Assembly (NCBI GenBank): GCA_021787535.1
Contig: JAJYLR010000001.1
Span: forward strand, 301,501 to 365,500
Length of the DNA: 64,000 nt
Source of the DNA: a bacterium
Lineage (GTDB): Bacteria; Patescibacteriota; CPR2; UBA1875; JAJYID01
Reading direction: 5' to 3'
The position numbers and the translations under genes are program-made. This document shows, one piece after another, positions 3,479 to 43,779 of the stretch. Below the pieces are notes generated by a model, which saw only the letters and a list, made by a program, of their open reading frames with translations, was not told the origin of the DNA and ran no database searches. Every line of letters starts with the position of its first letter. Position 1 is the stretch's first letter.

Positions 3479-5478
3479 ACCAGTCCTTGGGGATTAACAT
3501 CTATTTTCCATTTGGAACTAGTATATTTTACCACTTTTTCCGTGAACTCATCAAGATTTTCCTTTCCTTGAACCTTTAAAAGTATCTGCCAGCGATATTT
3601 ACCGTCTATTTTTGGTAAAAAAGCAGGGGAGGGTCCGACGAGTTCCACACCTTTCCCGTTCTTAATAATCTTCTGGATAATTTCTTTACTCATATTGCGG
3701 GATTCTTCCTCGCATTTTGCCGGATCTTTGTCTGAAAAAAGAAGATGTATGAGATTGGAATAAGGAGGATAGGAGAGCTCTTTTCTTTTGGGCAGCTCGC
3801 TCTCGTAGAAGGATTTATAGTCATGTTTGGCCGCCATTTTTAAGATAGGATTATCCGGATTGTAGGTTTGAAGTATTACCCGCCCGCGCTTTTTTCCCCG
3901 ACCGGTTCGTCCCGCCACCTGCATGATTAGAGAAAAGGCATGTTCGGAGGCGCGGAAGTCCGGTATATTTAGCATATTATCAGCTGAGATAATACCAACC
4001 AGATCGACATTTGGCAAATCCCATCCTTTGGCTATCATTTGGGTGCCGATCAGGATATCAAAACTTTTGTTCTTAAATTCTTCGTAGATATTCGCATGAT
4101 TTTTTCGAACCGAGTCGGCATCCATTCTTCTGACTCGTGCATTCGGAAAAAGACGCTTCACTTCCGACTCTATCTTCTGGGTGCCTTTGCCAAAGTATTT
4201 TATTGCATGAGATTTACATTTCGGACACACGGTCGGCACCACGGTTTTATAGTCGCAATGATGGCAGAAGAGGCCACTAACCTTGTCATTCCCGCGCAGG
4301 CGGGAATCTGTTATTTCGTGGTAAACAAGGGGGATTTCACAGTTTGGACATGTGACGACATACCCGCAGTCACGGCAGGAAACGAATGTTGAGAAACCCC
4401 GCCGGTTTATGAAAAGCACGGCTTGCCGGCTTTCCTGTAAGACATTTTCAATTTCTTCCTGAAGTTTCTCTGACAAGACAGATTTGTTTCCATACTGAAA
4501 CTCCTGAGCCATGTTGACAATTTGTACTTCAGGCATTTTGTCCTGGATATATCTTTCTTTCAGTTCATGAAATATGTACTTGCCGTTTTTTGCATAAAAA
4601 AATGTTTCAAATGATGGTGTGGCACTTCCCATTATTAAATATGTGCCTGTAACCTCACTAATTTTTTCGGCAACCTCGCGAGTTAGGTATCTGGGATTTT
4701 TATCTTGTTTGTAGCTGGTTTCATGCTCCTCGTCAATAACGATTAAACCAAGATTATAAAAGGGTAAGTATAGGGCGCTTCTGGAACCGATAACAATGTT
4801 TTTTTTGCCGCCTGCAACCTCTTTCCAGACCAGCGCTCTCTCGGTTTCTTTGAGGTAGCTGTGATAAAGCGCTACCTGGCCGGGAAATTTTTCCTCAAAT
4901 CTTGCGACCGTTTGAGGTGTCAAGGCAACTTCAGGCACTAGAATGATGGCCTGTTTGCCCGAAGAGATTACTTTCTCCAAAACTTCTAAATAAACTTCTG
5001 TTTTGCCTGATCCTGTGACGCCGAAAATCAGGTGCGGTTTATCCGGATGGGCCAGGATCACTCCGGCGATTTTCTTCTGATCCTCGGTGAGCAAATGGCT
5101 TTTTCTGATCCGGCGGCGAAATTTCTGAGACTCAGATATCCTTCTTTTTTTCAAAACGCCGGTTGGCAGGATAGTTTTTACGATTTCTGAAACAGGTGAA
5201 GCGTAGCGGTCGCGAAGCCAAGGGATTAGCTCGATTAAATGTTTCGGCAAGGGTTCACTCAAAACGGCCGTAATTTCTTTTGTATCAAACTCTGGCTTAG
5301 CTACAAAATCCAAAACTATCCCCGCGGATTTTTTACCGCGAAAAGAAAGAGAGACAATCTGGCCCGGTTTTATTTCATTTTCTAATTCATGAGGCACGGC
5401 ATAGGTAAAAAAATCTTTATTCCCGCTCGGCGCCGCCACAGCGCATAAAACATATTTCATAGCTTTATTATAAATCAC
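3475..5478 (-). CDS. priA: primosomal protein N' (replication restart helicase PriA)
   Basis: GVTGSGKTEVY Walker A, DEEH box, Cys4-Cys4 zinc-binding region. Confidence 0.9.
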   Translation of the reverse strand: MIYNKAMKYVLCAVAAPSGNKDFFTYAVPHELENEIKPGQIVSLSFRGKKSAGIVLDFVAKPEFDTKEITAVLSEPLPKHLIELIPWLRDRYASPVSEIVKTILPTGVLKKRRISESQKFRRRIRKSHLLTEDQKKIAGVILAHPDKPHLIFGVTGSGKTEVYLEVLEKVISSGKQAIILVPEVALTPQTVARFEEKFPGQVALYHSYLKETERALVWKEVAGGKKNIVIGSRSALYLPFYNLGLIVIDEEHETSYKQDKNPRYLTREVAEKISEVTGTYLIMGSATPSFETFFYAKNGKYIFHELKERYIQDKMPEVQIVNMAQEFQYGNKSVLSEKLQEEIENVLQESRQAVLFINRRGFSTFVSCRDCGYVVTCPNCEIPLVYHEITDSRLRGNDKVSGLFCHHCDYKTVVPTVCPKCKSHAIKYFGKGTQKIESEVKRLFPNARVRRMDADSVRKNHANIYEEFKNKSFDILIGTQMIAKGWDLPNVDLVGIISADNMLNIPDFRASEHAFSLIMQVAGRTGRGKKRGRVILQTYNPDNPILKMAAKHDYKSFYESELPKRKELSYPPYSNLIHLLFSDKDPAKCEEESRNMSKEIIQKIIKNGKGVELVGPSPAFLPKIDGKYRWQILLKVQGKENLDEFTEKVVKYTSSKWKIDVNPQGLV
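4284..4309 (-). repeat. Palindromic hairpin repeat copy inserted in frame in the priA zinc-finger region
   Basis: tgtcattcccgcgcaggcgggaatc; encodes DSRLRGNDK on the minus strand. Confidence 0.55.
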
Positions 5479-5788
5479 TGAGTACTTTACAGTAAACCCG
5501 ACTACATCAAGATTGTCGATTAATGGCAGAAGAAAATCACTATGCTAATACATATTAGTGTAGTAGTCCGCCACTTACTTGAACTAAACTAAAGTAGTTT
5601 ATTGAAAGCGCTAATATTAACTACATCGATTTAGTTTTTTTGGGGTGGCTGAGGATTGAGTTTATATTACCTTAACCAAAATGTTTCATAAAAAACCGTT
5701 TTTTATGATAAAATACCCATAAGCGTTAGAATAATAGCCGGAGGTGTCCGGATTTTTTTATCAAACGGGGAACTTGAAGGGAGGGAAA

Positions 5789-5929
5789 ATGAGATCGGAA
5801 TCAACAGCATCCGCCCGGAACAATGAAGCAGGAGAAATTGATTGGCTGAGGGTTTTATTTCTTGGGTTATTAGGCATCTATGTTCTTGGCGTAGCCATAG
5901 GCATTCCGTTTCTTTTCCTGGCGACATAA
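5789..5929 (+). CDS. small membrane peptide (46 aa)
   Basis: RBS gggaggg 6 nt upstream of ATG; hydrophobic C-terminal helix; higher GC than surroundings. Confidence 0.4.
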   Translation: MRSESTASARNNEAGEIDWLRVLFLGLLGIYVLGVAIGIPFLFLAT

Positions 5930-5943
5930 CAAAGGAGATCAAA

Positions 5944-6126
5944 ATGGCAAAAGCGAAATGTCCGATACCGAAGACAGACAAGAAGGAACTTAAGGCATTC
6001 CGATTTGAAGGGCTGGACGGCGCTTGTCTGGCCGCGGGATGCGGCCGGAATTATCTCTATAGAGAGGGGAGATCTTTTCCGGGCGGTTGTCTGTTGAAAC
6101 AAAAATGGCAGTTTACACCAGTTTAA
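5944..6126 (+). CDS. small Cys-rich protein (60 aa)
   Basis: RBS aaggag; CPIP...C..AGCG...GGC cysteine pattern. Confidence 0.4.
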   Translation: MAKAKCPIPKTDKKELKAFRFEGLDGACLAAGCGRNYLYREGRSFPGGCLLKQKWQFTPV

Positions 6127-6147
6127 CCTAAGAGAAAGGAATTTCCG

Positions 6148-6321
6148 ATGTGCAGAAACTGTTTAGAGCCATTAGGCCAATGCGAAAAAAGCGGTTCCAA
6201 AGAGACGGTTTCAAAGTCTTCGGCTGCAATCGGCGCTCTCGTTATCTTCGCCATATTTGCGGCTTTCTGTCTTGTTGCAATTTACGCTGACCTTGGAGTT
6301 TTCTGGGGGCCGTCGAGGTAA
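6148..6321 (+). CDS. small protein (57 aa) with N-terminal CxxC...C and a C-terminal TM helix; absent from the ORF track
   Basis: RBS aaagga; MCRNCLEPLGQCEK then AIGALVIFAIFAAFCLVAIY. Confidence 0.35.
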   Translation: MCRNCLEPLGQCEKSGSKETVSKSSAAIGALVIFAIFAAFCLVAIYADLGVFWGPSR

Positions 6322-6358
6322 GAAACGTTCTATAATCTAAGTTAATTGAGGTGTTGCC

Positions 6359-6766
6359 GTGAAGAGCGCGATGCAGACTTATAAGCCCCTGCTTAAACTG
6401 CCGACAACTGTAATTCGGTTTAAAGCCATTGCGAGCGAGGATCTCACAAGGGCATTACACAACGTCTTTGCTTCTTTGCCGAAGCCGCATGAGGTTGGTG
6501 CCTGGTTAGCTACAGGTATCTCAAGACAAGGCATAAGCTTTGCCGAGTTACAGAAAGATCTTGCCGATACCGGCATTAACGAGGTTGATGTCTATGAAGG
6601 TAGCTGGACGGTTCTGCTCACCAGAAATTCCAGACGGTGGTTTCTCCATAACCCCGAAACCATGGAGTGGATTGTCTGCTTCCCAGGCGGGTCAAACGGC
6701 GCAGCCAGAGAGTTATATCATGCGATTGCCTGGCGGGATGATATCGAGATTACCGAAATAAGGTAA
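6359..6766 (+). CDS. hypothetical protein (135 aa), GTG start
   Basis: ORF with RBS ttgaggtg; same higher-GC block as the three peptides upstream. Confidence 0.5.
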   Translation: MKSAMQTYKPLLKLPTTVIRFKAIASEDLTRALHNVFASLPKPHEVGAWLATGISRQGISFAELQKDLADTGINEVDVYEGSWTVLLTRNSRRWFLHNPETMEWIVCFPGGSNGAARELYHAIAWRDDIEITEIR

Positions 6767-6905
6767 TTTTCATCAAATGCGCAATCTTAGGGCGGTGCTC
6801 TTTAAGAACATCGCCCATTTTCTTTACTTCAAGTAAAATTTACGCTACAATTTTGCATTAGTTGATAAGTTTTTAGTTGGTAAGTTACTAAGTTGTAAAA
6901 GGAAT

Positions 6906-6929
6906 GATTCTGGACAAGCCAGAATGACG
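6906..6929 (+). repeat. palindromic hairpin repeat (ATTCTGG/CCAGAAT variant)
   Basis: gattctggacaagccagaatgacg; identical core at 19969 and 43751. Confidence 0.5.
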
Positions 6930-6995
6930 TGGTTTGAGGTCGGATATTAAATTTCAGGATTCGGATTTCAAACTACGATGAGAATAAATTAAGAG

Positions 6996-8336
6996 ATGAA
7001 AAAGCGAAGGAATTGGATTAAGGTTGTTTTAATAGCGCTGCTTTTGGCAGCGGCTCTTGTTGTTGATTGGCCGGGAAAGGGTATACATATTACCTTTAAG
7101 CCGCTTCATATCGACTTGAAAGGCCCCGACTTTAAAATCAAACAAGGTCTCGATCTGCAGGGCGGGACGTCCATTACTTATAATGCCGATCTATCAAAAA
7201 CTCCAGCAAGCGAAAAACAGAATGCTATGGAATCGCTCCGAAAAGTAATTGAAAACCGAGTTAATGAATTCGGAGTGACAGAGCCGGTTATCCAGACTAC
7301 GAAAATGGGCGGACAGGACCAAATTACCGTGGAGCTTCCGGGGGTGAAGGATGTGAATCAGGCAATGGATCTGATCGGAAAAACTGCCCAGCTTGATTTC
7401 AAAGAATTAAGTTCTCAGGGTACACCCGAGAGTTTTGGTCTTACCGGCAAAGATCTAAAAAGCGCATCCCAGACTTTCGATCCCAATACGAACCAGCCGG
7501 AAGTTTCTATAGTCTTTAACTCGGACGGAGCGAAGAAATTCGAAGACGCTACGGCTCAAAATGTCGGCAAGCCGATTTACATCTTGCTTGACGGGCAGAT
7601 TATCTCCGCGCCGAAAGTAAATGAGAAAATATCAGGCGGGCGGGCGGTTATAACCGGCCAATTTGACGTTAAGGAGGCAAAGAATTTGGCGATACAGCTA
7701 AATGCCGGTGCGCTTCCCGTACCGATTCACATCGCCCAGCAGCAGACAGTCGGCGCGACACTGGGCCAGCAGGCGATTAAAGCGAGTCTTTTTGCCGGAG
7801 TGTTGGGAGTGATTCTAGTCATGCTCTTTATGGCGCTTTACTACCGCCTGCCCGGACTCGTGGCTGACGCCTCGCTGGTTTTATATGCGATTTTCGTTTT
7901 GGCTATTTTCAAAGTTCTGGCCATTACCCTTACCTTAGCCGGGGTGGCGGCATTTATTTTATCAATCGGTATGGCGGTGGACGCAAATGTTCTGATATTC
8001 GAGCGGATGAAAGAGGAGCTGCATCACGGCAAAAGCTTGAACGCTGCCGTTGAGACAGGGTTTAAACGCGCCTGGACGGCAATCCGCGACTCGAATCTGG
8101 CAAGTATTATTACGGCTTCAATCCTATTTTTATTCGGTTCCGGAACTATCAAGGGCTTTGCGGTTGTCCTTATTATCGGAGTTCTCGTCAGTATGTTTAC
8201 GGCCGTCAATGTGACTAGAACATTCCTTCGAATCGTTATTAAACAAAAGTTTCTGACATCGCCGAAGTTTTATCTGGGAGCAGGAAAGGAGACAGACCCC
8301 ACTTCATTTAAAAAATTACGCGGGGCGGGCAAATGA
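6996..8336 (+). CDS. secD: protein translocase subunit SecD
   Basis: Signal-anchor, large periplasmic domain, C-terminal 6-TM bundle; ATGA overlap with secF. Confidence 0.9.
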   Translation: MKKRRNWIKVVLIALLLAAALVVDWPGKGIHITFKPLHIDLKGPDFKIKQGLDLQGGTSITYNADLSKTPASEKQNAMESLRKVIENRVNEFGVTEPVIQTTKMGGQDQITVELPGVKDVNQAMDLIGKTAQLDFKELSSQGTPESFGLTGKDLKSASQTFDPNTNQPEVSIVFNSDGAKKFEDATAQNVGKPIYILLDGQIISAPKVNEKISGGRAVITGQFDVKEAKNLAIQLNAGALPVPIHIAQQQTVGATLGQQAIKASLFAGVLGVILVMLFMALYYRLPGLVADASLVLYAIFVLAIFKVLAITLTLAGVAAFILSIGMAVDANVLIFERMKEELHHGKSLNAAVETGFKRAWTAIRDSNLASIITASILFLFGSGTIKGFAVVLIIGVLVSMFTAVNVTRTFLRIVIKQKFLTSPKFYLGAGKETDPTSFKKLRGAGK

Positions 8337-9217
8337 ATATTATGAAATATAGGAAAATATGGTTCGGGATATCGCTGGCAATAATTGTGCCGGGCGTTAT
8401 ATCCATGTTTCTTTGGGGACTCCGGCTCGGCATTGACTTCACCGGCGGCTCGATGATGGAAATAAAGGGCAGCCAGGATATCGCAAAAGTTACTTCAATT
8501 GTAAGGGGCGATGGAGTGGAAGTTTCATCCGTTCAGAAAACAGGCGCAAACTCGTTGATTGTCCGTACCAAAGAAATGTCTGAAGCGAAACATAGAGATG
8601 TGAAGAAAAAGCTGTCGGATGCGCTCAAAGTCCAGGAAACGCAGTATGAAACAGTGGGTCCGACTGTGTCCAAGGATCTTACCATGAAAGCTTTCGAGCT
8701 GATCGCCTTTGCTTCGGTATTAATCGTTCTCTTTCTTGCATATTCATTTAGAAAGGTTCCCAAGCCTGTCAGTTCCTGGCAGTTTGGTGTCTGCGCTATC
8801 ATCGCTCTCCTCCATGACGTACTTGTGATGCTTGGCGTCTTCTCTATTCTCGGCCATTTTCTAGGCATTGAAATAGACAGCATGTTTGTGGTGGCGGCGC
8901 TTACCGTGATCGGATTTTCGGTGCATGATACAATCGTGGTATTTGACAGAATTCGGGAGAATTTAATAAAGCGCGGATCGGACGACTTTGAAGAGTTGGC
9001 CAATGACAGTGTGCTCGAGACATTCTCGAGATCTTTAAATACATCATTTCTGACATTCCTGGTTCTTCTGACTCTCTTTCTGCTAGGCGGGGAGAGTACC
9101 CGGATCTTTGTGCTTGCGCTTCTGGTCGGCATTGCCACCGGAACTTACTCATCGATTTTCAATGCCTCGCCGATGCTTGTGGTCTGGCAAAACTGGAAAA
9201 CAAAGAGAAACAAGTAA
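8333..9217 (+). CDS. secF: protein translocase subunit SecF
   Basis: LGIDFTGG motif and TM topology. Confidence 0.9.
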   Translation: MNIMKYRKIWFGISLAIIVPGVISMFLWGLRLGIDFTGGSMMEIKGSQDIAKVTSIVRGDGVEVSSVQKTGANSLIVRTKEMSEAKHRDVKKKLSDALKVQETQYETVGPTVSKDLTMKAFELIAFASVLIVLFLAYSFRKVPKPVSSWQFGVCAIIALLHDVLVMLGVFSILGHFLGIEIDSMFVVAALTVIGFSVHDTIVVFDRIRENLIKRGSDDFEELANDSVLETFSRSLNTSFLTFLVLLTLFLLGGESTRIFVLALLVGIATGTYSSIFNASPMLVVWQNWKTKRNK

Positions 9218-9283
9218 TTTTAAAGTGAAAACCGTGACTCATGCCACGGTTTTTTACAATATTTATCGACTTTTAGCGGTATG

Positions 9284-9547
9284 TTATACCGCAACTAGCG
9301 TACTGCCTGGTATTAAATTACAGTTTGCGTATATTTCAGGGACTAATCCTTGATATTCTACGCTTCCAGACAGCAGTGTTTTGCGGACAATCTTCTCAAC
9401 GAGCGGCTGCAAATAGTTTGACATGGTTGTAAATCCTTTGCCAACAGGCATTCCATCAAATTCCTCTTGCGAGATGATAATATCAAAAATTTGACAGCCT
9501 TGCTCCTTGAGTGGCCGGCATCGCACTCGAATAAACTTGCCTTCCAT
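9284..9547 (-). CDS. hypothetical protein (87 aa)
   Basis: RBS gggaggtgg upstream of ATG on the minus strand. Confidence 0.45.
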   Translation of the reverse strand: MEGKFIRVRCRPLKEQGCQIFDIIISQEEFDGMPVGKGFTTMSNYLQPLVEKIVRKTLLSGSVEYQGLVPEIYANCNLIPGSTLVAV

Positions 9548-9667: not shown

Positions 9668-9964
9668 CTAGAAAAGATGAAGTTGGCTACCTTGGAAGAC
9701 TTGAGTCGGTTTCCTCATCTGCTGGACAACCTGGCCAAACCTCTTTAAGGTATTCCATACCACACTTTCCCGCAACCGTTCGATTGCATCTATGTCATGG
9801 CCGAAAGATAATTGTTTGGCGATTATGTGACAGATATACCTTTGTTTTTGCTCATCGCCATCGCGAGCCATTGCGACATATGCAGGAACGGCTTTGAAGC
9901 TAACCTCCTTCCGGTAACCGGAGGCGTAAGTTGTTACTTGGTAAAACTTTTGATTTTTTGCCAA
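9668..9964 (-). CDS. hypothetical protein (~98 aa), probable TTG start
   Basis: RBS ggaggtga 5 nt upstream of TTG; terminator downstream. Confidence 0.4.
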   Translation of the reverse strand: MAKNQKFYQVTTYASGYRKEVSFKAVPAYVAMARDGDEQKQRYICHIIAKQLSFGHDIDAIERLRESVVWNTLKRFGQVVQQMRKPTQVFQGSQLHLF

Positions 9965-13123: not shown

Positions 13124-14416
13124 ATGAACCAAAAAGAAAAGCTTATGAAAGGCGTGTTTTTCATTACGCTCGGATGCCGGCTCAATCAGGCGGAAACAAA
13201 TATGCTCAAAAATAATGCTCTTGAACGCGGATTTAGAATTGCTCAATCAGAGAGTACTGCGGATATTTTCATTATAAATTCATGCTCGGTTACCGATAAG
13301 GCGCAAAGAGAGACAAATAAACTTCTCAAAAATCTAACGGCCAAATATCCGGAGAAAAAAGCGGTCATAACCGGATGCGGAGCGCATGATGAACACAAAA
13401 AGTATGCATTTGTTGTAAGTAATGAAGATAAGAACAGGTTGTTCTCGTTATTATCACAACAATCCACGAAGCGTTGTCTTAAACCTTTTTCTCGTCATTC
13501 TGAACAAAGTGAAGAATCTCAGAGATCCTTCGTCGTTCCTCCTCAGGATGACGAAATATGTGGCAGAACGCGCCTCATGGTCAAGGTGCAGGAAGGGTGT
13601 AATAACTTCTGTGCATACTGTATCGTTCCTTATTTGCGCGGCAGGGAATATAGCTATGAACCCGAAAGAATAATCAGTGATCTTAAAAAAGCAGAAGAAG
13701 ATGGCTATAACGAGATAGTTTTATGCGGAGTAAATGTTGGCAAGTATGAGTATCACGATGTAAAATTGGCCGGTTTAATTCAAGAAATTCTTGTAAGAAC
13801 AGAAATCCCGCGTATACGCTTAAGTTCGATTAATCCCGATGATTTTTCAGACGATTTGATTGATTTGTGGGTAAAAAATGACCGTTTGTGTCCGCATTTC
13901 CATATCTCTCTTCAGAGCGGCTCGAATAGCGTTTTAAAACGCATGGGCAGAAGGTATAATACCAAGCAGTATGCTGAACTGGTTGCCAAAATTAGAAAGC
14001 GTGTTCCTGACGTACAAATTACAACTGATGTTATTGTCGGTTTTCCGGGTGAAACAGAAGGGGAATTTGCCGAAACAGTTGCGTTTGTGAAAAAAATAAA
14101 GTTTCTGAAAGTACATGTTTTCCGCTATTCTCCTCGTGAAGGCACAAGGGCTGCCGATATGGATGGCCAAATCAGCGAAAAAATTAAAAAGGAAAGAGCT
14201 GTAAAACTGCAAAAAATCGAGTCAGATGTGAGGCAGAGAACTTTACTAAACTACATTAGTAAAGAAGTCGAGGTACTATTTGAACAGGAGAAAAATGGCT
14301 ATTATTCTGGCTTTACCAAAAACTACATTAAAGTTTTGAAAGCAAGCAAAAAGGACCTGACGAATCAGATTACAAAGGTTACAATTAAAGCGCTGGACGA
14401 GAATCTAGTTGTTTAG
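13124..14416 (+). CDS. MiaB/MtaB-family radical-SAM tRNA methylthiotransferase
   Basis: N-terminal MTTase domain, CNNFCAYC radical-SAM motif, C-terminal TRAM-like region. Confidence 0.85.
   Translation: MNQKEKLMKGVFFITLGCRLNQAETNMLKNNALERGFRIAQSESTADIFIINSCSVTDKAQRETNKLLKNLTAKYPEKKAVITGCGAHDEHKKYAFVVSNEDKNRLFSLLSQQSTKRCLKPFSRHSEQSEESQRSFVVPPQDDEICGRTRLMVKVQEGCNNFCAYCIVPYLRGREYSYEPERIISDLKKAEEDGYNEIVLCGVNVGKYEYHDVKLAGLIQEILVRTEIPRIRLSSINPDDFSDDLIDLWVKNDRLCPHFHISLQSGSNSVLKRMGRRYNTKQYAELVAKIRKRVPDVQITTDVIVGFPGETEGEFAETVAFVKKIKFLKVHVFRYSPREGTRAADMDGQISEKIKKERAVKLQKIESDVRQRTLLNYISKEVEVLFEQEKNGYYSGFTKNYIKVLKASKKDLTNQITKVTIKALDENLVV
13493..13556 (+). repeat. degenerate MITE-like element in frame in the mtaB-like gene
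   Basis: tcgtcattctga...tcaggatgacgaaa inverted termini; encodes SRHSEQSEESQRSFVVPPQDDEI in the domain linker. Confidence 0.4.
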
Positions 14417-19267: not shown

Positions 19268-19908
19268 GGGACGTGCTTTTGCTTTTTGGCATGCAAGGGT
19301 CGGGTAAAGGAACTCAAGGTGAGAGAATCAAAAAAAGATATGGCGGTTTCACTGATATTATAGTAGGACAGCTTCTTCGGGAAAAGGCGAGAACTGACAA
19401 GAAAATGGAAGTGTTTATGAAAACCGGCAATCTTTTTCCGGATGAGATAGTTGAGAACGTTATTGAAGAGAAAATTGACGCCTTGTCAGCCGAGGAGAAA
19501 ATTTTATTTGATGGATTCCCCCGCTCTGAAAGTCAATTTCTAATATTTGAAAGACTAGCCAGGAAATATCAGTTTCACACGGTCGCGCTCAATATTTTGA
19601 TAAATGAGGAGGAATCTTTAGAGCGTTTGAGAAAAAGATATGTTTGCCCGAAATGCGACTATATGCAGGTCGGCGAAGGAACTTGTCCAAACGACGGAAC
19701 TAAGCTCGAACTTAGATTAGATGATACAAATCCTGAGATAATAAAGCACAGAATATCTATCTTCAAAAAAGATACGCAGCCGATAATCGACCACTTTAAA
19801 GAAAAAGGCGAGCTAACCGAGATTGACGGCATAGGCAGTTTCGATGAGGTGACCGAGAGAATTTTTAAAGTTCTGGATAAATATTATGAGGTTTCAAAGG
19901 TCGCATAA
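19264..19908 (+). CDS. adk: adenylate kinase (Zn-lid type)
   Basis: GSGKGTQ P-loop; CPKC...C..DG lid. Confidence 0.9.
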   Translation: MRDVLLLFGMQGSGKGTQGERIKKRYGGFTDIIVGQLLREKARTDKKMEVFMKTGNLFPDEIVENVIEEKIDALSAEEKILFDGFPRSESQFLIFERLARKYQFHTVALNILINEEESLERLRKRYVCPKCDYMQVGEGTCPNDGTKLELRLDDTNPEIIKHRISIFKKDTQPIIDHFKEKGELTEIDGIGSFDEVTERIFKVLDKYYEVSKVA

Positions 19909-19929
19909 GCCAAATCAAAACCACTCTTT

Positions 19930-19996
19930 TGTCATCCGCGGACTTGATCCGGGGATCTAGATAAGGAAGGATTCTGGACAAGCCAGAATGACGAAA
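19930..19996 (+). repeat. composite palindromic element (tgtcatcc...ggattctggacaagccagaatgacgaaa)
   Basis: TGTCAT left end and GAATGACGAAA right end; contains the ATTCTGG/CCAGAAT hairpin. Confidence 0.5.
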
Positions 19997-20001
19997 TAAT
20001 T

Positions 20002-20748
20002 ATGATAACCATTAAAACAAAAAAAGAAATTGATATTATGCGAGAAGGCGGACATATTTTGGCCGCCATTTTGAAGGAGGCGCGCGATTATACGAAACCC
20101 GGCATTGCAACCGGCGATATCGATAGATTTGTCGGCCGGCTTTGCCTGAAGTATGGCGTCAAGCCGGCATTTCGGGGCTATAATGGCTTCCCCGCAAATA
20201 TTTGTACCTCTTTAAATGACGAAATAGTGCATGGGCTGCCGTCTGACAAAAGAGTAATTCACTCCGGCGATCTTGTCTCTCTGGACTTCGGAGTCTTGTA
20301 TCGCGGGTTTAATACTGATGCGGCTATTACCTTTAGTGTTGGCAAGGCAAACGCTACTGAGAAGAAATTGATCAAAGTTGTCCAGAAGTCGTTCTTCGCC
20401 GGCATGAAAAAGGTTAGGGCCGGGGCTCATCTGGGCGACGTATCGGAAGCGATCCAGAAATATATCGAAAAGGAAGGTTTTGCGGTAATTAGAAATCTGG
20501 CCGGCCATGGAATTGGCAAAGAGATTCATGAATATCCGGTGATTCCAAACTTCGGCAAAAAGGGAACCGGTGATATTTTAAAGGAGGGGATGGTTCTGGC
20601 TATCGAACCGATGATTGCCGAGAAAGGTTTCGAGCTCAAGCTTGACACTGACGGCTGGACGTATATTACAGCCGACGGCGGACTCTCGGCCCACTTTGAA
20701 CACACAATTTGCGTCACCAAGCGAGGGTATGAGATTTTGACGCAATAA
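20002..20748 (+). CDS. map: methionine aminopeptidase type I
   Basis: Conserved D, D, H, E, E metal ligands in the pita-bread fold. Confidence 0.9.
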   Translation: MITIKTKKEIDIMREGGHILAAILKEARDYTKPGIATGDIDRFVGRLCLKYGVKPAFRGYNGFPANICTSLNDEIVHGLPSDKRVIHSGDLVSLDFGVLYRGFNTDAAITFSVGKANATEKKLIKVVQKSFFAGMKKVRAGAHLGDVSEAIQKYIEKEGFAVIRNLAGHGIGKEIHEYPVIPNFGKKGTGDILKEGMVLAIEPMIAEKGFELKLDTDGWTYITADGGLSAHFEHTICVTKRGYEILTQ

Positions 20749-28247: not shown

Positions 28248-28411
28248 TTTTTCTCCAATCGGAATAGTTTTCAAGGTGCGGAGGTGTATTTTAGCAATTG
28301 TAAAAACCCAAAACAAGTATACAGATTTTGGAATTTTCAAAATTCAAATGCCAATGTCCAATCAATTTTCAAGTTTTAAAATTTCAGACCAGAATAATTA
28401 AATTAAGGACT

Positions 28412-28440
28412 GGATTCCCGCTTTCGCGGGAATGACAAAG
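28412..28440 (+). repeat. palindromic hairpin repeat (ATTCCCGC/GCGGGAAT variant)
   Basis: ggattcccgctttcgcgggaatgacaaag. Confidence 0.5.
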
Positions 28441-34259: not shown

Positions 34260-34302
34260 TTTTATTAGACTAAATTAAATATCTAAATAGAACAAAAAAT
34301 CT

Positions 34303-34331
34303 TTGACAGAAACCAAAATTTTTATTATAAT
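34303..34331 (+). promoter_or_regulatory. consensus sigma70 promoter (TTGACA-17-TATAAT)
   Basis: TTGACA 34303-34308, 17-nt spacer, TATAAT 34326-34331. Confidence 0.45.
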
Positions 34332-34429
34332 ATTTTAGCACTTAAAAAGCAGTTTGTGCGGCTATAATAGAGTTTTTTTGAATTCTGTTATAGCTGCACA
34401 AGCAAAAAAATCCTCTAATTTGTTCATTT

Positions 34430-35000
34430 TTCTCAAGGATGATCGCGAGAACATTGAACTCACAGAGGAACAATCCACTTCGTCGCCGATATGGGCCGGA
34501 TAGCAGTTGCCTACCTACCTATCCTGGTATCGTTGCAACGTATTCGGAGTTCGGTGAACAATGGAAGATGCAGGCTTCCAAGGAGGTGGTTATCTGGTGC
34601 CTACCAGATAAAGACCTGTAGGAAAGATAAGATGATAGGTTCGGGTGGCTTGTCTTTCTGCCGGCGGAATAAAACGGTGAAGATCATAAGAGGAGAGAGC
34701 AGCCCCGACTGTGGATCTCCGGCTAGGCGCTACTCTAGTCAAGCACTTTTTTAATGGATACATTTCCTTGGATAGGAGGTCAGACGAGAGTTAGTAGATC
34801 CTGATTCGGCTTGACCGATCACTCTTGTCTGCATGTATCTACGACAAAGGAAGATTTTTAACCACAGCTTCGCTCATTTGAGTAAAGTAAGAAGAGTCCT
34901 TAAGCTCCCTTCTGAACCCAAATGAGAACGTAGTGGTACCGTCTGCAGACGGATGAACGTTGCTTTTCCGTTGTCAGGAACGGACAAGTTCAACGCTTTT
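34430..35000 (+). ncRNA. candidate large structured ncRNA (~570 nt), identity unresolved
   Basis: Non-coding, GC markedly above the genome average, many local hairpins (atctggt/accagat, cctac/gtagg, ccgtctgcagacgg); promoter upstream and terminator at the 3' end. Confidence 0.35.
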
Positions 35001-35015
35001 AAAGCTCGGCCAAGC
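34981..35015 (+). terminator. rho-independent terminator
   Basis: aaagctcggc/gccgagcttt plus T-rich tail. Confidence 0.65.
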
Positions 35016-35120
35016 CGAGCTTTTCTCTTTTATTTAAATGATGATTGAGTTTGTAATATTACATATTAATTTCTAGCCCCTTTCATTGTAATCTTTATTT
35101 AATTATAAAAGGAGGTTGAA

Positions 35121-37928: not shown

Positions 37929-38129
37929 TATCCTTCCTTTCCAAAAAAGGTTTTTAGGCAAGAACAAGTGTTTTTATTATAGCATAATTAATTCTCAAAT
38001 AAGTAAATTAAGTACTGAAAGATTAAAATATTTGAAATTGACATCTAGAGTTTAGCAGCTATACTTTTCTTAAGGAACTTTTCTAACGAACCTTGACTTT
38101 CTAAGGAGTGGTTATGGAAATTATATCTA

Positions 38130-38399
38130 GTGTTTGTTACCGGGTTTGTGGCATTTTTTATGTCTTTATCATCATCCGCTTTATTTTTGTATGCAACATT
38201 TGTTTGGGACCATAATAAGAAGATTGTGTTTCCGCTATGGACCATAATCGGTTTATGTGGTCTTGTTTCTGTATTTCTTTCAACAACAATGTTCGGATTC
38301 TTAGCTATAACTTTTAACATCCTTGTGATCGCTTCTGTCGTTCTAAACTGGAAATATACTCTCAAAATATCTCCGGGTAACGGTTACGGCAGATACTGA
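38130..38399 (+). CDS. small membrane protein (89 aa), start uncertain
   Basis: Three hydrophobic segments; see the overlapping 33-codon uORF at 38114. Confidence 0.35.
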   Translation: MFVTGFVAFFMSLSSSALFLYATFVWDHNKKIVFPLWTIIGLCGLVSVFLSTTMFGFLAITFNILVIASVVLNWKYTLKISPGNGYGRY

Positions 38400-38419
38400 T
38401 TGAAATTTTAAAAGTTCTA

Positions 38420-38446
38420 AAAATGCCCGCATTGACGGGCATTTTT
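38420..38446. terminator. bidirectional terminator aaaatgcccg-cattga-cgggcattttt
   Basis: Hairpin flanked by A and T runs. Confidence 0.65.
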
Positions 38447-38457
38447 CTTTGGTTGAT

Positions 38458-38886
38458 TTAAAATTCAGCTTCGGCCTCTTGAGGTTGAAGCTTGAAATAT
38501 TCAAGGACTTTTGGCGGCCAGAGGGATACGCCTTTTGCTGAACAGATTGAAGGGACTGCCGATCGTTCAACATATTTCACATCAGTTAAGTCATCGCCAT
38601 ATTTCAAGTCATGAGTCAGCGGTTCGCATAGGTACCATTTAGCAATTGTTTTAGTTTCAGCCACATGCACTTTGCCTAAAAATTCTTTTACTCTGATTTT
38701 AATACCTGCCTCCTCCCAAATTTCTCTTGTGAGGCCTTCTACATCAGATTCACAACCTTTAAGACTGCCGCCCGGAATATGCCAAGCTTCGCTCAAAGGA
38801 TGGCCTAAGGTCTTCTCTTTCTTGCCGACCAGAACTTTTCCTTCATGCTCGACTAATGCGACTATGGCCTGGTTTAGTTTGCCCAT
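38458..38886 (-). CDS. NUDIX hydrolase
   Basis: Nudix box GGSLKGCESDVEGLTREIWEEAGI. Confidence 0.85.
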   Translation of the reverse strand: MGKLNQAIVALVEHEGKVLVGKKEKTLGHPLSEAWHIPGGSLKGCESDVEGLTREIWEEAGIKIRVKEFLGKVHVAETKTIAKWYLCEPLTHDLKYGDDLTDVKYVERSAVPSICSAKGVSLWPPKVLEYFKLQPQEAEAEF

Positions 38887-39015
38887 TTCAAATCTCCTTA
38901 AATATTATTATAACAGCGATTGACCGGGAATAATAAAAAAAGTATAATTATTTGTGCCTGGATAGGCACATTTTTTAGTATTAACAGTCATTACGGACTT
39001 GATTTGAAGCCTTTA

Positions 39016-39064
39016 GATTCCTGTTTTCGCAGGAATGACAGTAAAGGTTATAGGAATGACAAGG
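39016..39064 (+). repeat. palindromic hairpin repeat (ATTCCTG/CAGGAAT) plus a half-copy, just upstream of ileS
   Basis: gattcctgttttcgcaggaatgacag...aggaatgacaagg. Confidence 0.5.
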
Positions 39065-39070
39065 AATTGA

Positions 39071-42000
39071 ATGAAAAAGTTTGAGAAAGTAGATCCGAAA
39101 CCCGACTTTCCGAAAATTGATGAGGAGGTTCTTTCGTTTTGGAAAGATGAGAAGGTGTTTGAGCATACGCAGAAAAGGGATTCCTCGGCTCGTCGCTCCG
39201 CGAAGTCGCTCGGAATGACAGAGGGGAAGGATTCCGGACTGAGCCAGAATGACTCCACTTCGCTAAAGCTTCGCGAGGCAGGCAAAGGGGGTGAGAAGAA
39301 TTTTATTTTCTTTGAAGGGCCGCCGACGGCAAACGGCAGGCCTGGTGTTCATCATGTCCTTTCCCGTGTCTTTAAGGACATTATTCTCCGTTATAAAACT
39401 ATGCAGGGTTATCACATTGACAGAAAAGGCGGCTGGGATACTCACGGGCTTCCGGTTGAGCTTGAGGTGGAGAAAAATCTCGGCATTTCAGGAAAGCCGG
39501 ATATTGAAAAGTATGGCGTTGAGAAATTCAACAAAAAATGCCGCGAAAGCGTCTTTAAGTACGTCAAAGAGTGGGAGGAACTGACGAAAAAAATCGGTTT
39601 CTGGGTCGATACCAAAGATCCTTATGTCACCTACGATTCGAGCTATATCCAGTCGCTTTGGTGGGTGCTCGGCGAGGCCTGGAAGAAAGATTTGCTATAT
39701 GAAGGATACAAGGTTGTGCCATACTGTCCTCGATGCGGAACTGCTCTCTCGTCACACGAAGTTTCTCAGGGTTACAAAGATATTACAGAAAACACGGTTT
39801 ACGTTAAGTTTCCGGTCGAAGGCGAAAAAGACACATATTTTCTTGCTTGGACGACTACACCATGGACTTTGCCGGGAAACTCAGGACTTGCTTTTGGACC
39901 GAACATTAAATACGTAAAAGCCGAGTCGGAAGGCGAAAAATATATTCTAGCCAAGGATCGGCTGGAAAAGGTATTTGAAGGCAAGAAATATAAAATTCTT
40001 GGGGAGTTTTATGGCAAAGAAATCGTTGAGAGCATTTTCAATGGGCCGACGGAAGGCACGAAGCATTACAAACCCCTTTTCGCCGATGGTGCAAAGTTTA
40101 AAAAAGAAAAAGATACGGAAGAATATACAGTCATTATGGGTGACTTTGTTTCGACCGAAGATGGCACGGGTATCGTCCATATCGCGCCGGCATTTGGTGA
40201 AGATGACTATGAAGTAGGCAGAATACAAAATGGTTTATCTGTACTTATGACAGTTGATGAACAGGGCAATATGCTGACTGAAGTCGGAAAAGGGAAGTTT
40301 GCCAAAGATGCCGACTCACTCATTGTTTCAGATTTAAAAAAGCGGGGACTGATATTCAAAGAAGAAGAGTATACACACTCGTATCCGTACTGCTGGCGTT
40401 GCGGCACTCCCCTCCTTTATTACGCGCGGGACACTTGGTATATCAGAATGTCATCGCTTCGAAAGGAACTGGTTAAAAATAATGAAGAAGTACACTGGTA
40501 TCCGTCTCATATGAAAAATGGCCGTTTCGGCGAATGGATTCGAGAAGCCAAGGATTGGGCGCTGTCCAGGGAAAGATATTGGGGCACGCCGCTGCCGATC
40601 TGGAAATGTGATAAGTGTGGTAAAAAAGAATTAATTTCTTCGTATGAAGAGTTGGGTGATAAAACCGGTAAAAAGATTCCGGACGACTTTGATCCGCATA
40701 GGCCGTATATTGACGATTACACATGGAAGTGCGATTGCGGAAGTGAATTCAAGCGCTACACTCATGTCATAGACTGCTGGTTTGACTCCGGCGCCATGCC
40801 GTATGCGCAGTGGGGCTATCCTTCCGCCGCCGGCAGTGAGGAGGGATTTAAAACACACTTCCCCGCTGACTACATCTGCGAGGCGGTAGATCAGACGCGC
40901 GGCTGGTTCTACACATTGCTCGCTATTTCTACATTTCTTGGCAAGGGTCCGGCTTATAAACACGTAATTAGCTTGGGCCATATATTAGATGAAAAGGGTG
41001 AGAAGATGTCTAAGTCCAAAGGAAATGTGGTAAATCCTTGGGACGTTCTCTCGGCGCATGGTGCCGATGCGCTCAGATGGTATATGTATAGCGCGACCAT
41101 GCCGGGAAACCCGCGCAACTTCTCTGTCAAACTGGTCGGCGAAGCCAAAAGATTTCTGGTGACTTACTGGAATGTGTACAGCTTCTTTGTGACATATGCG
41201 AATGTTGATAATTACGTACCAAGCAGAAAACATGCAAATTCAGAAAACATTCTCGACAAATGGATCTTATCGCGCAAAAACAAATTGGTTGAGTCTGTGA
41301 CCAAGCATCTCGAAAGATATAATATTTATAAAGCTACCCAAGAAATCGAGCAGTTCATTGATGACCTCTCGAACTGGTATGTGAGACGTTCGAGGAGAAG
41401 ATTTTGGAAAAGCGAAAATGACACCGACAAAACCGCGGCATACGATACACTGTATGAAGTTCTTGTGGGCTACACAAAGGTTCTGGCGCCTTTTATGCCA
41501 TTTGTGACGGAAACCGTTTATCAAAATCTGGCGGGTGGCGGAAGTGTTCATTTGTCCGAATGGCCGAAGTTTGAGAAAGGTACAATTGATGAAAAAATAG
41601 AAACAGCGATGCAAAGTGCCAGAAGTATCGTCGAGGCGGGTCTGGCAGACAGAAACGAAAATGGCATTAAAGTGCGGCAGCCACTTATGTCTTTAAGCTA
41701 CGGTGGAACGAAGCTAGACGCGGCATTGGAGCAGATTATTGCTGAAGAAGTGAATGTCAAAGAAGTGACATTTAACGCTAAACTAAAAACGACCATTGCT
41801 TTAAATACGGAAATTACTGAAGAGTTAAAAGTAGAAGGTCTGGCGCGGGAGATTGTCAGAAAAGTTCAGGCGATGAGGAAAAAAGCTGGATTTAACGTGG
41901 AAGACAGAATCCATTTGTATTGGAGTACGGCTGATAAAGCAATTCAATCTGTATTTGAAAAGGAAAACGGCTATATCGCCAAAGAAACACTTGCCGAAAA

Positions 42001-42094
42001 GGTTACGGTTGGAGATATAGAAAAAGCGGAATATAGTGAAAAAGCGAGGATTGAGGGAGCGGAAATAGAGTTGGGAGTACAAAAAATTAAGTAG
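39071..42094 (+). CDS. ileS: isoleucyl-tRNA synthetase (type 2)
   Basis: PPTANGRPGVHHVLSR (HIGH region), KMSKS, editing domain, Zn-binding CxxC pairs. Confidence 0.95.
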   Translation: MKKFEKVDPKPDFPKIDEEVLSFWKDEKVFEHTQKRDSSARRSAKSLGMTEGKDSGLSQNDSTSLKLREAGKGGEKNFIFFEGPPTANGRPGVHHVLSRVFKDIILRYKTMQGYHIDRKGGWDTHGLPVELEVEKNLGISGKPDIEKYGVEKFNKKCRESVFKYVKEWEELTKKIGFWVDTKDPYVTYDSSYIQSLWWVLGEAWKKDLLYEGYKVVPYCPRCGTALSSHEVSQGYKDITENTVYVKFPVEGEKDTYFLAWTTTPWTLPGNSGLAFGPNIKYVKAESEGEKYILAKDRLEKVFEGKKYKILGEFYGKEIVESIFNGPTEGTKHYKPLFADGAKFKKEKDTEEYTVIMGDFVSTEDGTGIVHIAPAFGEDDYEVGRIQNGLSVLMTVDEQGNMLTEVGKGKFAKDADSLIVSDLKKRGLIFKEEEYTHSYPYCWRCGTPLLYYARDTWYIRMSSLRKELVKNNEEVHWYPSHMKNGRFGEWIREAKDWALSRERYWGTPLPIWKCDKCGKKELISSYEELGDKTGKKIPDDFDPHRPYIDDYTWKCDCGSEFKRYTHVIDCWFDSGAMPYAQWGYPSAAGSEEGFKTHFPADYICEAVDQTRGWFYTLLAISTFLGKGPAYKHVISLGHILDEKGEKMSKSKGNVVNPWDVLSAHGADALRWYMYSATMPGNPRNFSVKLVGEAKRFLVTYWNVYSFFVTYANVDNYVPSRKHANSENILDKWILSRKNKLVESVTKHLERYNIYKATQEIEQFIDDLSNWYVRRSRRRFWKSENDTDKTAAYDTLYEVLVGYTKVLAPFMPFVTETVYQNLAGGGSVHLSEWPKFEKGTIDEKIETAMQSARSIVEAGLADRNENGIKVRQPLMSLSYGGTKLDAALEQIIAEEVNVKEVTFNAKLKTTIALNTEITEELKVEGLAREIVRKVQAMRKKAGFNVEDRIHLYWSTADKAIQSVFEKENGYIAKETLAEKVTVGDIEKAEYSEKARIEGAEIELGVQKIK
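39179..39286 (+). repeat. 36-codon in-frame insertion in ileS built from degenerate hairpin-repeat copies
   Basis: gattcc...ggaatgacag and ggattccggactgagccagaatgact; falls between QKR and GGEKNFIFFEGPP, where other type-2 IleS are contiguous. Confidence 0.5.
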
Positions 42095-42106
42095 GAGCAC
42101 AAGTGC

Positions 42107-42176
42107 TGTCATTCCCGCGAAGGCGGGAATCCAGACTTAATATTTTATAGATTCCCGCCTTCGCGGGAATGACAAG
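42107..42176. repeat. 70-bp MITE-like element: 26-bp perfect inverted repeats (tgtcattcccgcgaaggcgggaatcc) around an 18-bp spacer
   Basis: Between the ileS stop and the ftsW/rodA start. Confidence 0.6.
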
Positions 42177-42178
42177 AG

Positions 42179-43288
42179 GTGGCAGGTTTGTTTTTTAACT
42201 TACGAAATTTAAAAAACTTTGACTGGTTTATCATTGTAATCAGCATACTTCTTTTTGCTATCGGTCTTGCAATTATATATTCCACGACATTCGGTGTGGT
42301 TGGCGGGGGTAGAGAAGCTTGGCAGCAGGCAATTTTCGGACTAGTTGGGTTGGTCTTTTTCTTTTTAGTTGCTTTTTTCGATTATCGAACTATGTTTAAC
42401 TGGAGCAGTATTTTATATGTGATTTTAATCGTTACATTGGTTGCCGTACACTTTCTAGGCAAAAACTCCATGGGTGCAACCCGATGGATTACTATAGCCG
42501 GTTTCCAGTTCCAGCCGTCTGAGTTTGTGAAGCTTCTTATTATTATTGTGATGGCAAAATATTTCAGCAATTTTGCCGAAGAAATGCATAAGCTGAAGCC
42601 AATTATCAGATCGGGAATATACTTTGCCATACCGACGTTTCTCGTTCTAATACAGCCGGATTTGGGAACGGCCCTGGTTTTTATAGTAATATGGATAGCA
42701 ATGCTTGCGGTCAGCAGAATACGCCTGAAACATATTATCATTCTAGCTGCCGCTGCACTGCTTTTAGTCCCGGTGGGATGGATGACCATGCATGATTATC
42801 AGAAGCAGAGGATCATGGCTCTCGTGAATCCGTCAAGCGATCCAAAAGGCGCCGGGTACAATGTGACGCAGGCGCAGATTGCTATCGGTTCAGGGCAGCT
42901 TTTTGGCAGAGGATTGGGCCATGGTCCGCAGTCGCAGCTCAACTTTATACCGGAGAAAAATACCGACTTTATTTTTGCCGCTCTGGCTGAAGAAATGGGA
43001 TTTGTTGGGGTTTTTGTTGTACTTGCGCTTTTTGCCGTTCTAATCTTTCGCGGTATTTTGATATCTGCCAAGTCGAGGGACTATTTCGGCATGTATCTGT
43101 CGACGGGAATAGTGGCGATGCTTGCCTTTCATGTATTTTTGAATATCGGGATGAATCTGGGAATTGCTCCGGTAGCCGGAATACCGCTCCCCCTCATCAG
43201 TCTCGGCGGCTCATCAGTAATTGTAGTTTTAGTTTCTCTTGGGATTCTCGAAAGCATTCATATTCATCATAAGAAGATAGATTTTTAG
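42179..43288 (+). CDS. ftsW: SEDS family peptidoglycan glycosyltransferase (FtsW/RodA)
   Basis: Ten-TM SEDS topology with conserved periplasmic loop motifs; probable GTG start. Confidence 0.85.
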   Translation: MAGLFFNLRNLKNFDWFIIVISILLFAIGLAIIYSTTFGVVGGGREAWQQAIFGLVGLVFFFLVAFFDYRTMFNWSSILYVILIVTLVAVHFLGKNSMGATRWITIAGFQFQPSEFVKLLIIIVMAKYFSNFAEEMHKLKPIIRSGIYFAIPTFLVLIQPDLGTALVFIVIWIAMLAVSRIRLKHIIILAAAALLLVPVGWMTMHDYQKQRIMALVNPSSDPKGAGYNVTQAQIAIGSGQLFGRGLGHGPQSQLNFIPEKNTDFIFAALAEEMGFVGVFVVLALFAVLIFRGILISAKSRDYFGMYLSTGIVAMLAFHVFLNIGMNLGIAPVAGIPLPLISLGGSSVIVVLVSLGILESIHIHHKKIDF

Positions 43289-43379
43289 TTTCCCTATAGC
43301 ATAAAAGCATTGACAAAAACAGGATATTATGTTACCCTCTATTTCGTAAAAGTTCCTCTAGAGTCGATAAGGAGATCTA

Positions 43380-43562
43380 GTGAATACTGTACTGAATATG
43401 GTCTTTCTCATCCTGTTCTTTGTTGCAATCGTGGGGTTGTCCTTTCTAGTGAACAGCCTGATCAACTGGATCTGGCCCTACAACTGGCTGATCGCACGGC
43501 CGAAGGTGCCCAAGAATCAGTTACAGCTTTTTGGCACCTGGCAGTATCGCGGGCGCAGATAA
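43380..43562 (+). CDS. small membrane protein (60 aa), GTG start
   Basis: RBS aaggag 6 nt upstream; one TM helix. Confidence 0.4.
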   Translation: MNTVLNMVFLILFFVAIVGLSFLVNSLINWIWPYNWLIARPKVPKNQLQLFGTWQYRGRR

Positions 43563-43695
43563 AGTAGCAGCTGTAAACCAGGAATGTATCACCGGTCAGG
43601 CGGGCGTTTCCGCCCGCCTGACCAAAACCCAAGCAGAGTAATTCGAATTCAAAGATTATAGTCAAAGAAAAGCTCTGCTTTTTCATTTGATTTTA

Positions 43696-43724
43696 TTGAC
43701 TATCTCGAGAAAATTTAGTATAAT
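43696..43724 (+). promoter_or_regulatory. sigma70 promoter TTGACT-17-TATAAT upstream of rplU
   Basis: Near-consensus boxes. Confidence 0.45.
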
Positions 43725-43750
43725 TTTTTAGTGTTTAAAGATATTAATCT

Positions 43751-43779
43751 GGATTCTGGGCAAGCCAGAATGACGAAAG
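43751..43779 (+). repeat. palindromic hairpin repeat immediately upstream of rplU
   Basis: ggattctgggcaagccagaatgacgaaag. Confidence 0.5.

Follow-up and report, generated by a model that had tools for sequence, protein, structure and literature searches.

According to our analysis, a 64-kb stretch of a candidate phyla radiation (CPR) genome (contig JAJYLR010000001.1 of assembly GCA_021787535.1, positions 301,501 to 365,500 of the forward strand; hereafter, the window) carries a family of short oriented hairpins which, judged by their sequence, very probably belong to the dRS3/NTS/SRM repeats of Neisseria and other bacteria, that is, to the superfamily of CGTC-tagged REPs. Copies of the family are found in gene leaders and spacers, and alignments with orthologues indicate that genuine, lineage-specific insertions of them occurred in frame in priA, ileS and mtaB. 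We consider it likely that the hairpins are selfish, non-autonomous elements derived from units in which two hairpins flank an ssn gene, with an Ssn-type nuclease acting in trans. The closest named homologues of the proteins of the window are annotated as “Patescibacteria group bacterium,” “Candidatus Berkelbacteria” or “candidate division …”. In the following, loci and proteins from other genomes are designated by L and P numbers, respectively.

A structural scan of the window for ATTC with a perfect stem of at least 3 bp beyond it, a loop of at most 10 nt and GAAT revealed eight perfect hairpins (starts at 4288, 6907, 19971, 28414, 39017, 42111, 42151, and 43753). An initial reading made from the letters of the window alone (the sequence-only reading) had raised the question of whether the motif exceeds its chance frequency at this GC content; with eight hairpins against 0.41 ± 0.58 (maximum 2) in 200 first-order Markov shuffles of the window (43% GC), it is clearly enriched. 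Two component words are over-represented 3–5 times: GGAATGAC occurs 10 times (1.9 expected) and AGAATGAC 8 times (2.4 expected). When every GTCAT[TC]C head was listed and then folded, about 15 recognisable units were counted, including degenerate ones. All sites named in the sequence-only reading were present, at coordinates that were exact or off by 1–3 nt, and its claims of a single repeat family with compensatory stem variants were upheld. The density of the hairpins varies strongly among the relatives, from 0 to 4 per ~15–20 kb.

Two sub-families could be distinguished. Sub-family A follows the pattern TGTCATTCCCGCG-NNN-GCGGGAATC and has the head TGTC, an 8-bp stem (ATTCCCGC/GCGGGAAT), a 4-nt loop and the tails CCA, CCA, CTA, and CTG. 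Sub-family B follows the pattern CGTCATTCTGG-CTTGY-CCAGAATC, with the head CGTC (at 6929, 19993, and 43775), a 7-bp stem, a 5-nt loop and the tails CCA, CCT, and CAT. Further variants carry a CCTG stem, GTCATCC heads, or a long-stem form of ~45 nt, GTCATT[TC]CGACCGAC…GAGCGGAGRAATCC. Folded as DNA, the solo hairpins gave z values of about −3.8 to −4, and a pair at 42107–42174 formed a 25-bp perfect stem (−32.8 kcal/mol, z = −11), whereas the copies within the reading frames of ileS (z = +0.4) and mtaB (z = −1.4) turned out to be structurally degenerate. Perfect pairing, first proposed for each stem variant, is therefore kept by the intergenic copies and the priA copy alone. A search of Rfam with the hairpins matched no family.

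The assignment to a known family is based on a close agreement with published descriptions. The Neisseria repeat dRS3 (ATTCCC-N8-GGGAAT) is the core of the 28-nt NTS, CGTCATTCCCGCGMAVGCGGGAATCYRG (Chenal et al., Nat Commun 2025, PMC11893778), and NTS and the related SRM motifs are found in many bacteria, spatially linked to ssnA (PMC11893778). The published search for NTS tolerated one mismatch to this consensus (PMC11893778); two copies in the window (42107–42134 and 28410–28437) have one mismatch each and two others (4284–4311 and 42147–42174) have two each, so that four copies agree with the Neisseria sequence at 26–27 of 28 positions. The published SRM pattern, HGTCWYN(0-2)YYVSBRHN(0-5)WNVSBRGN(0-2)RNCYNB, is also enriched, with five matches in the window against a mean of 0.2 and a maximum of 2 in 100 dinucleotide-type shuffles; the B-type copies fall outside this regular expression, yet have the same head, outer stem and tail. 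As in Neisseria, the hairpins are oriented and have an unpaired head and tail. The differences are that the host is a CPR-like organism with a genome of ~0.64 Mb rather than a proteobacterium, that the A-type head is TGTC instead of the CGTC of the Neisseria NTS, and that about one-third of the window copies are intragenic and in frame, compared with ~2% of NTS in N. meningitidis (PMC11893778). The proposal of the sequence-only reading that structure rather than sequence is under selection was half right, since near-identical sequences recur across phyla: 42107–42134 agrees with the NTS of Neisseria in 27 of its 28 positions, and hairpins of a viral contig (L229, see below) are found base for base in the window. 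Such near-identity points to recognition of the hairpins by a sequence-specific protein.

The CGTC-tagged REP superfamily has been described as having a stem of 8–9 bp, a loop of 4–5 nt, a tail of 3 nt that is close to CCA and oppositely oriented dimers (Di Nocera, De Gregorio & Rocco, BMC Genomics 2013, PMC3733652). In the same work of 2013, CGTC-1 was equated with dRS3 and with R. conorii RPE-6; intragenic CGTC repeats had also been recorded there, many of them in genes for replication and repair, and no transposase was found (PMC3733652). The hairpins of the window share with CGTC-1 the unpaired CGTC head (B-type; the TGTC of the A-type is a one-base variant), the stem, the loop and the tail, as well as opposite dimers (42107–42174, 19930–19993, 1882–1995, and 60186–60326) and intragenic units (priA, ileS, and mtaB), among which priA fits the replication and repair pattern. 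The B-type stems are 7 bp long as opposed to the 8–9 bp of CGTC-1, and the CGTC-1 survey covered five phyla, without CPR, and found no associated enzyme (PMC3733652).

The parallel with Rickettsia RPEs drawn in the sequence-only reading proved apt, and by literature homology rather than by analogy (CGTC-1 = dRS3 = RPE-6, PMC3733652). In both cases, a palindromic repeat is inserted in frame into functional and essential genes of a reduced genome, and it contributes hydrophilic peptides to loops; in the window the insertions are lineage-specific and the loops are predicted to be disordered. The equivalence concerns the short forms, RPE-6/RPE-4 being CGTC-1/CGTC-4 (PMC3733652), and it rests on the literature; classical RPE-1 (100–150 bp, Rickettsia only) is unlike the window hairpins. 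The accompanying remark that no previous description was known from this kind of genome stood only in part. The family and its intragenic habit had been published, whereas the CPR setting may be undescribed: among the papers searched, none described these repeats in CPR/Patescibacteria, and the remark may hold only in this narrow sense.

The in-frame copies provide the clearest view of the insertions. In priA (3475..5478, − strand), the A-type hairpin TGTCATTCCCGCGCAGGCGGGAATCTGT (4284–4311, + strand) encodes the peptide DSRLRGND in the Cys-rich loop of the Zn finger. Four relatives (72–73% identity) read VYHE-TRNQT-GLYCHHC in this region and the window protein reads VYHE-IT[DSRLRGND]KVS-GLFCHHC, a net gain of eight codons that corresponds exactly to the 24-nt unit GATTCCCGCCTGCGCGGGAATGAC. 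As the A-type unit is exactly 24 nt long, the reading frame is kept. Solved PriA structures leave a 10-residue gap in the Cys-rich region opposite TDSRLRGNDK. Among 142 representatives at the 50% clustering level, the loop has three residues in 109, and the peptide DSRLRGND was found in the loop of none.

In ileS (39071..42094, + strand), a composite insert of 108 nt (39179–39286, − strand) adds 36 amino acids after residue 36, with the peptide DSGLSQNDSTSLK; it is made up of a long-stem variant (39179–39219), a B-like hairpin (39230–39253) and 33 further nt. This block is missing in six relatives (63–80% identity) and in more distant aligned homologues. At the same site, P0004 has a single hairpin (DSGLSQNDK) and P0002 a decayed one (DSGLNRSD). 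In a neighbour-joining tree of ileS from which the insert region had been removed, the three hairpin-bearing genes formed one clade, and the history of the site would fit one gain, followed by decay in L001 and by accretion of extra copies in the window. The ileS gene of L002 has a second in-frame hairpin at about codon 693 (L002:2187–2205).

In mtaB (13124..14416, + strand), a degenerate two-arm unit (CGTCATTCTGAAC…/…CAGGATGACG, 13493–13553) lies in frame in the inter-domain linker, at about residues 118–146. This linker is an insertion hotspot across the clade, in which the length of MtaB ranges from 404 to 514 aa. The linker insert is missing in P0245, P0247, P0252, and P0257, and the insert of the window is common to P0243 as well; the linker reads DSRLRGND in P0248, CHSE[HR]SEESRDP in P0250 and P0253, and …ERDFSA…VEMT (the long-stem variant) in P0246, P0249, P0254, and P0255, with a similar …ERDSSA…VGMT in P0244. 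By these alignments, at least four different hairpin types have hit the MtaB linker in sister lineages. In addition, P0243 (L123:8472–10016, a 514-aa MtaB) has two more in-frame “VIPARQ.SGKHP.GIQ” blocks of the NTS type with an expanded loop inside its radical-SAM domain, as well as an “SSSRRRGS” stretch near the C-terminus. Its sequence may therefore hold up to four candidate inserts, counting the shared linker one, the two radical-SAM blocks and a possible C-terminal one.

The alignments of PriA, IleS, and MtaB with their orthologues verified the three in-frame insertions claimed in the sequence-only reading; the sites of close relatives are empty, and an ancestral origin of the extra residues is thereby refuted. 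The inserts of IleS and MtaB are predicted to lie in disordered loops. In the AlphaFold models, residues 38–74 of IleS (overall pLDDT 86.7) and 117–146 of MtaB (overall pLDDT 88.7), which correspond to the inserts, fall below 50 and are the main segments to do so in both otherwise confident models.

Filled and empty sites were also found between genes. In the secD leader, a B-type hairpin (CGTCATTCTGGCTTGTCCAGAATC on the − strand, 6906–6929) follows a TACAAT −10-like box and precedes the start of the gene at 6996; the stems at this leader are CTGG/CCAG in the window, CTGGCC/GGCCAG in L123 and CCGGA/TCCGG in L125, and L124 has no hairpin. Between adk and map there is an outward-facing dimer (19930–19993), composed of a GTCATCC variant (19930–19960, + strand) and a B-type hairpin (19970–19993, − strand). 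The two genes overlap by ATGA in L123 and L124 and are separated by a 95-bp two-hairpin unit in the window, so that the insert must have changed the C-terminus and the stop codon of adk (19880–20010). The A-type hairpin upstream of nrdR (28410–28437, − strand) is common to the relative L001, where it has decayed. The ileS leader has a CCTG/CAGG stem variant (39016–39040) and a half copy (39053–39060, GGAATGAC), both on the − strand. The spacer between ileS and ftsW holds an inverted dimer of A-type hairpins with 25-bp perfect arms and outward tags (42107–42174) in the window and an inverted A-type pair in L002, but is 7 nt long and empty in L003; the loops of the pair co-vary between the genomes (GAAG/CTTC in the window, GGAG/CTCC in L002). 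The B-type hairpin of the rplU leader (43752–43775, − strand), between a TATAAT box and the rplU start, is missing at this site in L001, L002, and L003. Presence/absence polymorphism with empty sites in close relatives is thus found at priA, ileS codon 37, the ileS–ftsW spacer, the rplU leader, adk–map and the secD leader. A small conserved hairpin with a T-run (TGTGCCTGGATAGGCACATTTTTT) stands right after the TATAAT box upstream of ileS (38945–38990 in the window, L001:~9850–9880, and L002:~10–45); it does not belong to the repeat family and may act as a leader or attenuator.

Two longer composite dimers are present at 1882–1995 (left arm TGTCATGCTGAG…, right arm …GGTCGAAATGACA) and 60186–60326. 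Both have TGTCAT…ATGACAAA ends, which confirms the shared TGTCAT termini noted in the sequence-only reading, and in both, an AT-rich spacer separates two outward-facing arms with GTCAT heads. The two elements can be aligned with each other as homologues, as they can with L002:12166–12280, which occupies another genomic position in L002. Judging from their layout, these two elements and the pairs at 42107–42174 and 19930–19993 look like hairpin–ssn–hairpin units minus the gene; the dimers have terminal inverted repeats (such as the arms of 42107–42174) and no coding capacity, and the earlier description of them as MITE-like could be retained in this sense, although no target-site duplication was seen. 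A perfect 18-bp inverted repeat (60163–60180 and 60336–60353, ACCGTGAATTCAAAAACC and GGTTTTTGAATTCACGGT) brackets the element at 60186–60326; this element may have inserted into a hairpin loop that was already there, or it may have its true ends further out.

The link to ssn comes from other genomes. Ssn is a single-domain GIY-YIG nuclease of ~95 aa (cd10448), which binds and cuts the hairpin only as single-stranded DNA, and the layout NTS–ssnA–NTS is common (PMC11893778). In a species-representative genome collection, the B-type pattern was found in at least 119 loci, which, among the matches listed, include Acidobacteriota, Nitrospirota, Gammaproteobacteria, and many CPR lineages (Levyi-, Davies-, Gottesman-, Curtiss-, Howlett-, Peri-, Berkel-, Gracili-, and Saccharibacteria). 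GIY-YIG genes at hairpin loci were identified by tblastn with a consensus query, followed by confirmation with Pfam. Three B-type loci, L073, L081 (Curtissbacteria), and L107/L126 (Saccharibacteria-type, a 626-kb contig), encode a protein of 96–108 aa with PF01541 (GIY-YIG) as its sole Pfam match and with B-type hairpins on either side, heads outward. One hairpin of L107, the 3′ one, recurs without any change in the window at 6906–6928 and 19970. On the basis of their size, single domain, hairpin flanks and catalytic-residue positions (Tyr/Tyr/Glu at about 8/18/65, compared with the mutated residues Y6/Y17/E64 of SsnA at their published positions, PMC11893778), these CPR proteins are candidate members of the Ssn family (cd10448).

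Ssn-like proteins number at least 7,985 in the protein database; many come from CPR, and many are encoded on short or multiple contigs. Viral and prophage contigs, too, frequently carry the A-type pattern. In the viral contig L229, an Ssn-like gene is flanked by CGTCATTCCCGCGAAGGCGGGAATCCAG and GGATTCCCGCCTGCGCGGGAATGACG; the 5′ hairpin, from GTCAT to CCAG, equals window positions 42108–42134 base for base, and the 24-nt unit of the 3′ hairpin equals the priA copy (4285–4308). Hairpins identical to those of the window are therefore linked to ssn genes in other genomes, in an arrangement around small GIY-YIG genes of CPR and viral contigs that matches the published NTS–ssnA–NTS layout. The Ssn-like open reading frames (ORFs) L081:1388–1804 and L107:1838–2200 stay open through both flanking hairpins, so that automated calls can yield extended proteins with hairpin-encoded peptides; such read-through may explain Ssn-like matches of 126–154 aa.

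Taken together, we favor as the probable explanation that the hairpins of the window are selfish, non-autonomous elements of the known CGTC/dRS3 family. Under this explanation, the solo hairpins and the gene-less dimers (42107–42174, 19930–19993, and the two composites of ~115–140 bp) would derive from hairpin–ssn–hairpin units. Insertion would probably occur as single-stranded hairpins with the help of an Ssn-type nuclease in trans, encoded elsewhere in the genome or present in the past, and copies would persist in leaders, spacers and those loops or linkers of proteins in which additional hydrophilic residues are tolerated. Coding copies would then lose their structure, and intergenic copies would retain their stems. 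The empty sites, the composite dimer at another locus in L002 and the different hairpin types at one position of the MtaB linker support mobility and turnover of the elements. Mobilisation by Ssn, or by any other specific enzyme, and the status of the hairpins as neutral passengers in this organism are what we infer from this evidence.

Several points weigh against this explanation. Ssn is not known to drive transposition; what was demonstrated for it is cleavage, together with an influence on transformation, but not mobility (Chenal 2025, PMC11893778). A search of the 64-kb window and of ~140 kb of syntenic DNA from relatives with a hidden Markov model built from 120 Ssn-like proteins (run with --max) detected not even a degenerate copy of ssn. 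The membership of the CPR proteins in cd10448 is putative, and inspection by eye of the flanks of the dimers revealed no target-site duplication. Finally, orthologous leaders have kept their stems, with co-varying bases, and solo copies have a consistent orientation, so some copies could have a host function.

This last point leads to the alternative that the hairpins are host cis-regulatory RNA elements, acting on mRNA stability, termination or translation and kept by selection on RNA structure, their spread being incidental. Six intergenic copies are placed between −10-like boxes and start codons, within 5–70 nt of the latter, the orthologous secD leaders have compensatory stems, and the solo copies of the lineage (window, L002, L123, and L125) show the same strand in the mRNA, as the sense strand of the neighbouring or host gene reads …GAATGAC in 11 of 11 cases, including the priA copy, which is on the opposite DNA strand. 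The GC skew is positive throughout the window, and for this orientation bias the directions of transcription and replication are confounded. Such a role is nevertheless unlikely to account for the family. The same sequence also turns up within ORFs, across many phyla and on viral contigs; relatives without the hairpin exist for every site examined; the conserved unpaired head and tail are not required by RNA structure alone; and Rfam gave no match. A general strand bias of intragenic copies was rejected, with 23 against 22 across 122 loci.

Slightly less likely still, by our estimate, is that the copies are domesticated genomic marks as in Neisseria, where Ssn would cut incoming single-stranded DNA and thereby tune natural transformation; by analogy this could hold here, and it would be compatible with the selfish origin proposed above. 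The near-identity of the sequences to the experimentally characterised NTS and the frequency of Ssn-like genes in CPR are consistent with it. On the other hand, ssn was not found in the window or the syntenic relatives, in-frame copies in essential genes and decayed coding copies suggest passive tolerance rather than placement, and nothing in our data bears on transformation.

Mobilisation of the repeats as classical REPs/REPINs by a RAYT (TnpA-like) tyrosine transposase of the IS200/IS605 type, for which the sequence-only reading had suggested a search, is very improbable and was rejected. The window resembles REP/REPIN systems and MITEs (such as Correia/NEMIS) in a general way, having short palindromes, both single and as inverted dimers, and dimers with the appearance of repeat–gene–repeat units that have lost the gene. 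However, the head is (C/T)GTC and not GTAG, no target-site duplication is visible, and no RAYT association was found for CGTC repeats (PMC3733652). Pfam scans of the uncharacterised ORFs of the window revealed no transposase, with no Y1 transposase among them or in the Pfam tables of syntenic relatives, and the gene class associated with the hairpins is instead the GIY-YIG nuclease Ssn. That the extra residues are ancestral or convergent and resemble the repeats by coincidence has practically no probability left: although the lengths of the PriA loop and the MtaB linker vary across bacteria, the inserted DNA is the repeat unit itself, with the priA copy identical to the 3′ hairpin of L229, and empty orthologous sites for PriA, IleS, and MtaB in close relatives refute an ancestral segment.

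Two other features of the window were recorded. Between the amino-acid kinase and glyoxalase genes there is an ORF-poor gap of ~860 nt (34300–35035, + strand), which measures only ~70 nt in the syntenic L001 and L003. At its start there are a TTGACA/TATAAT-like promoter and a perfect hairpin of 24 bp, and at its end a terminator-like hairpin and a T-run; folded as RNA, 34335–35030 gave −250.6 kcal/mol against −196.6 for shuffles (z = −7.5). Searches of the gap revealed no Rfam match and no similarity to phages or plasmids, and it may represent an unclassified large structured RNA. A 766-aa helicase (45844–48144, + strand; ResIII and Helicase_C) has four C-terminal “homing endonuclease associated repeat” units (PF18780), and syntenic relatives have other genes between rplU and parA.

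Overall, the repeats are not a new class of elements: publications exist on the family, on its occurrence inside genes and on the enzyme that is its likely partner. Modestly new, and incremental, are the CPR host, the clean filled and empty sites in priA, ileS, and mtaB and the hotspot in the MtaB linker, by which the dRS3/NTS/CGTC-REP/RPE-6 family and its association with Ssn are extended to candidate-phyla-radiation bacteria. The hairpins (23–28 nt) create recurring peptides (DSRLRGND, DSGLSQND, VIPA…GIQ, and CHSE.SEES…) and, in metagenome-assembled genomes of CPR, ORFs that are spurious or extended, such as the ssn ORFs that read through their own hairpins; recognising the repeats leads to better gene calls and alignments. 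The filled and empty sites in essential genes are useful for dating the insertions and for gauging the tolerance of protein loops, and the gene-less dimers, together with the hairpin–ssn–hairpin units that have identical hairpins, represent concrete substrates for testing Ssn-mediated mobility. We tentatively raise the possibility, which we hold to be clearly less likely than its opposite, that Ssn-linked hairpins are still mobile in ultra-small CPR genomes and cause recurrent, lineage-specific insertions of peptides into essential proteins, RPE-like outside the Rickettsiales and with true hotspots. If this is true, the clade would be a natural system in which to test whether a GIY-YIG single-stranded DNA nuclease of ~95 aa drives the transposition-like spread of its own recognition hairpin.

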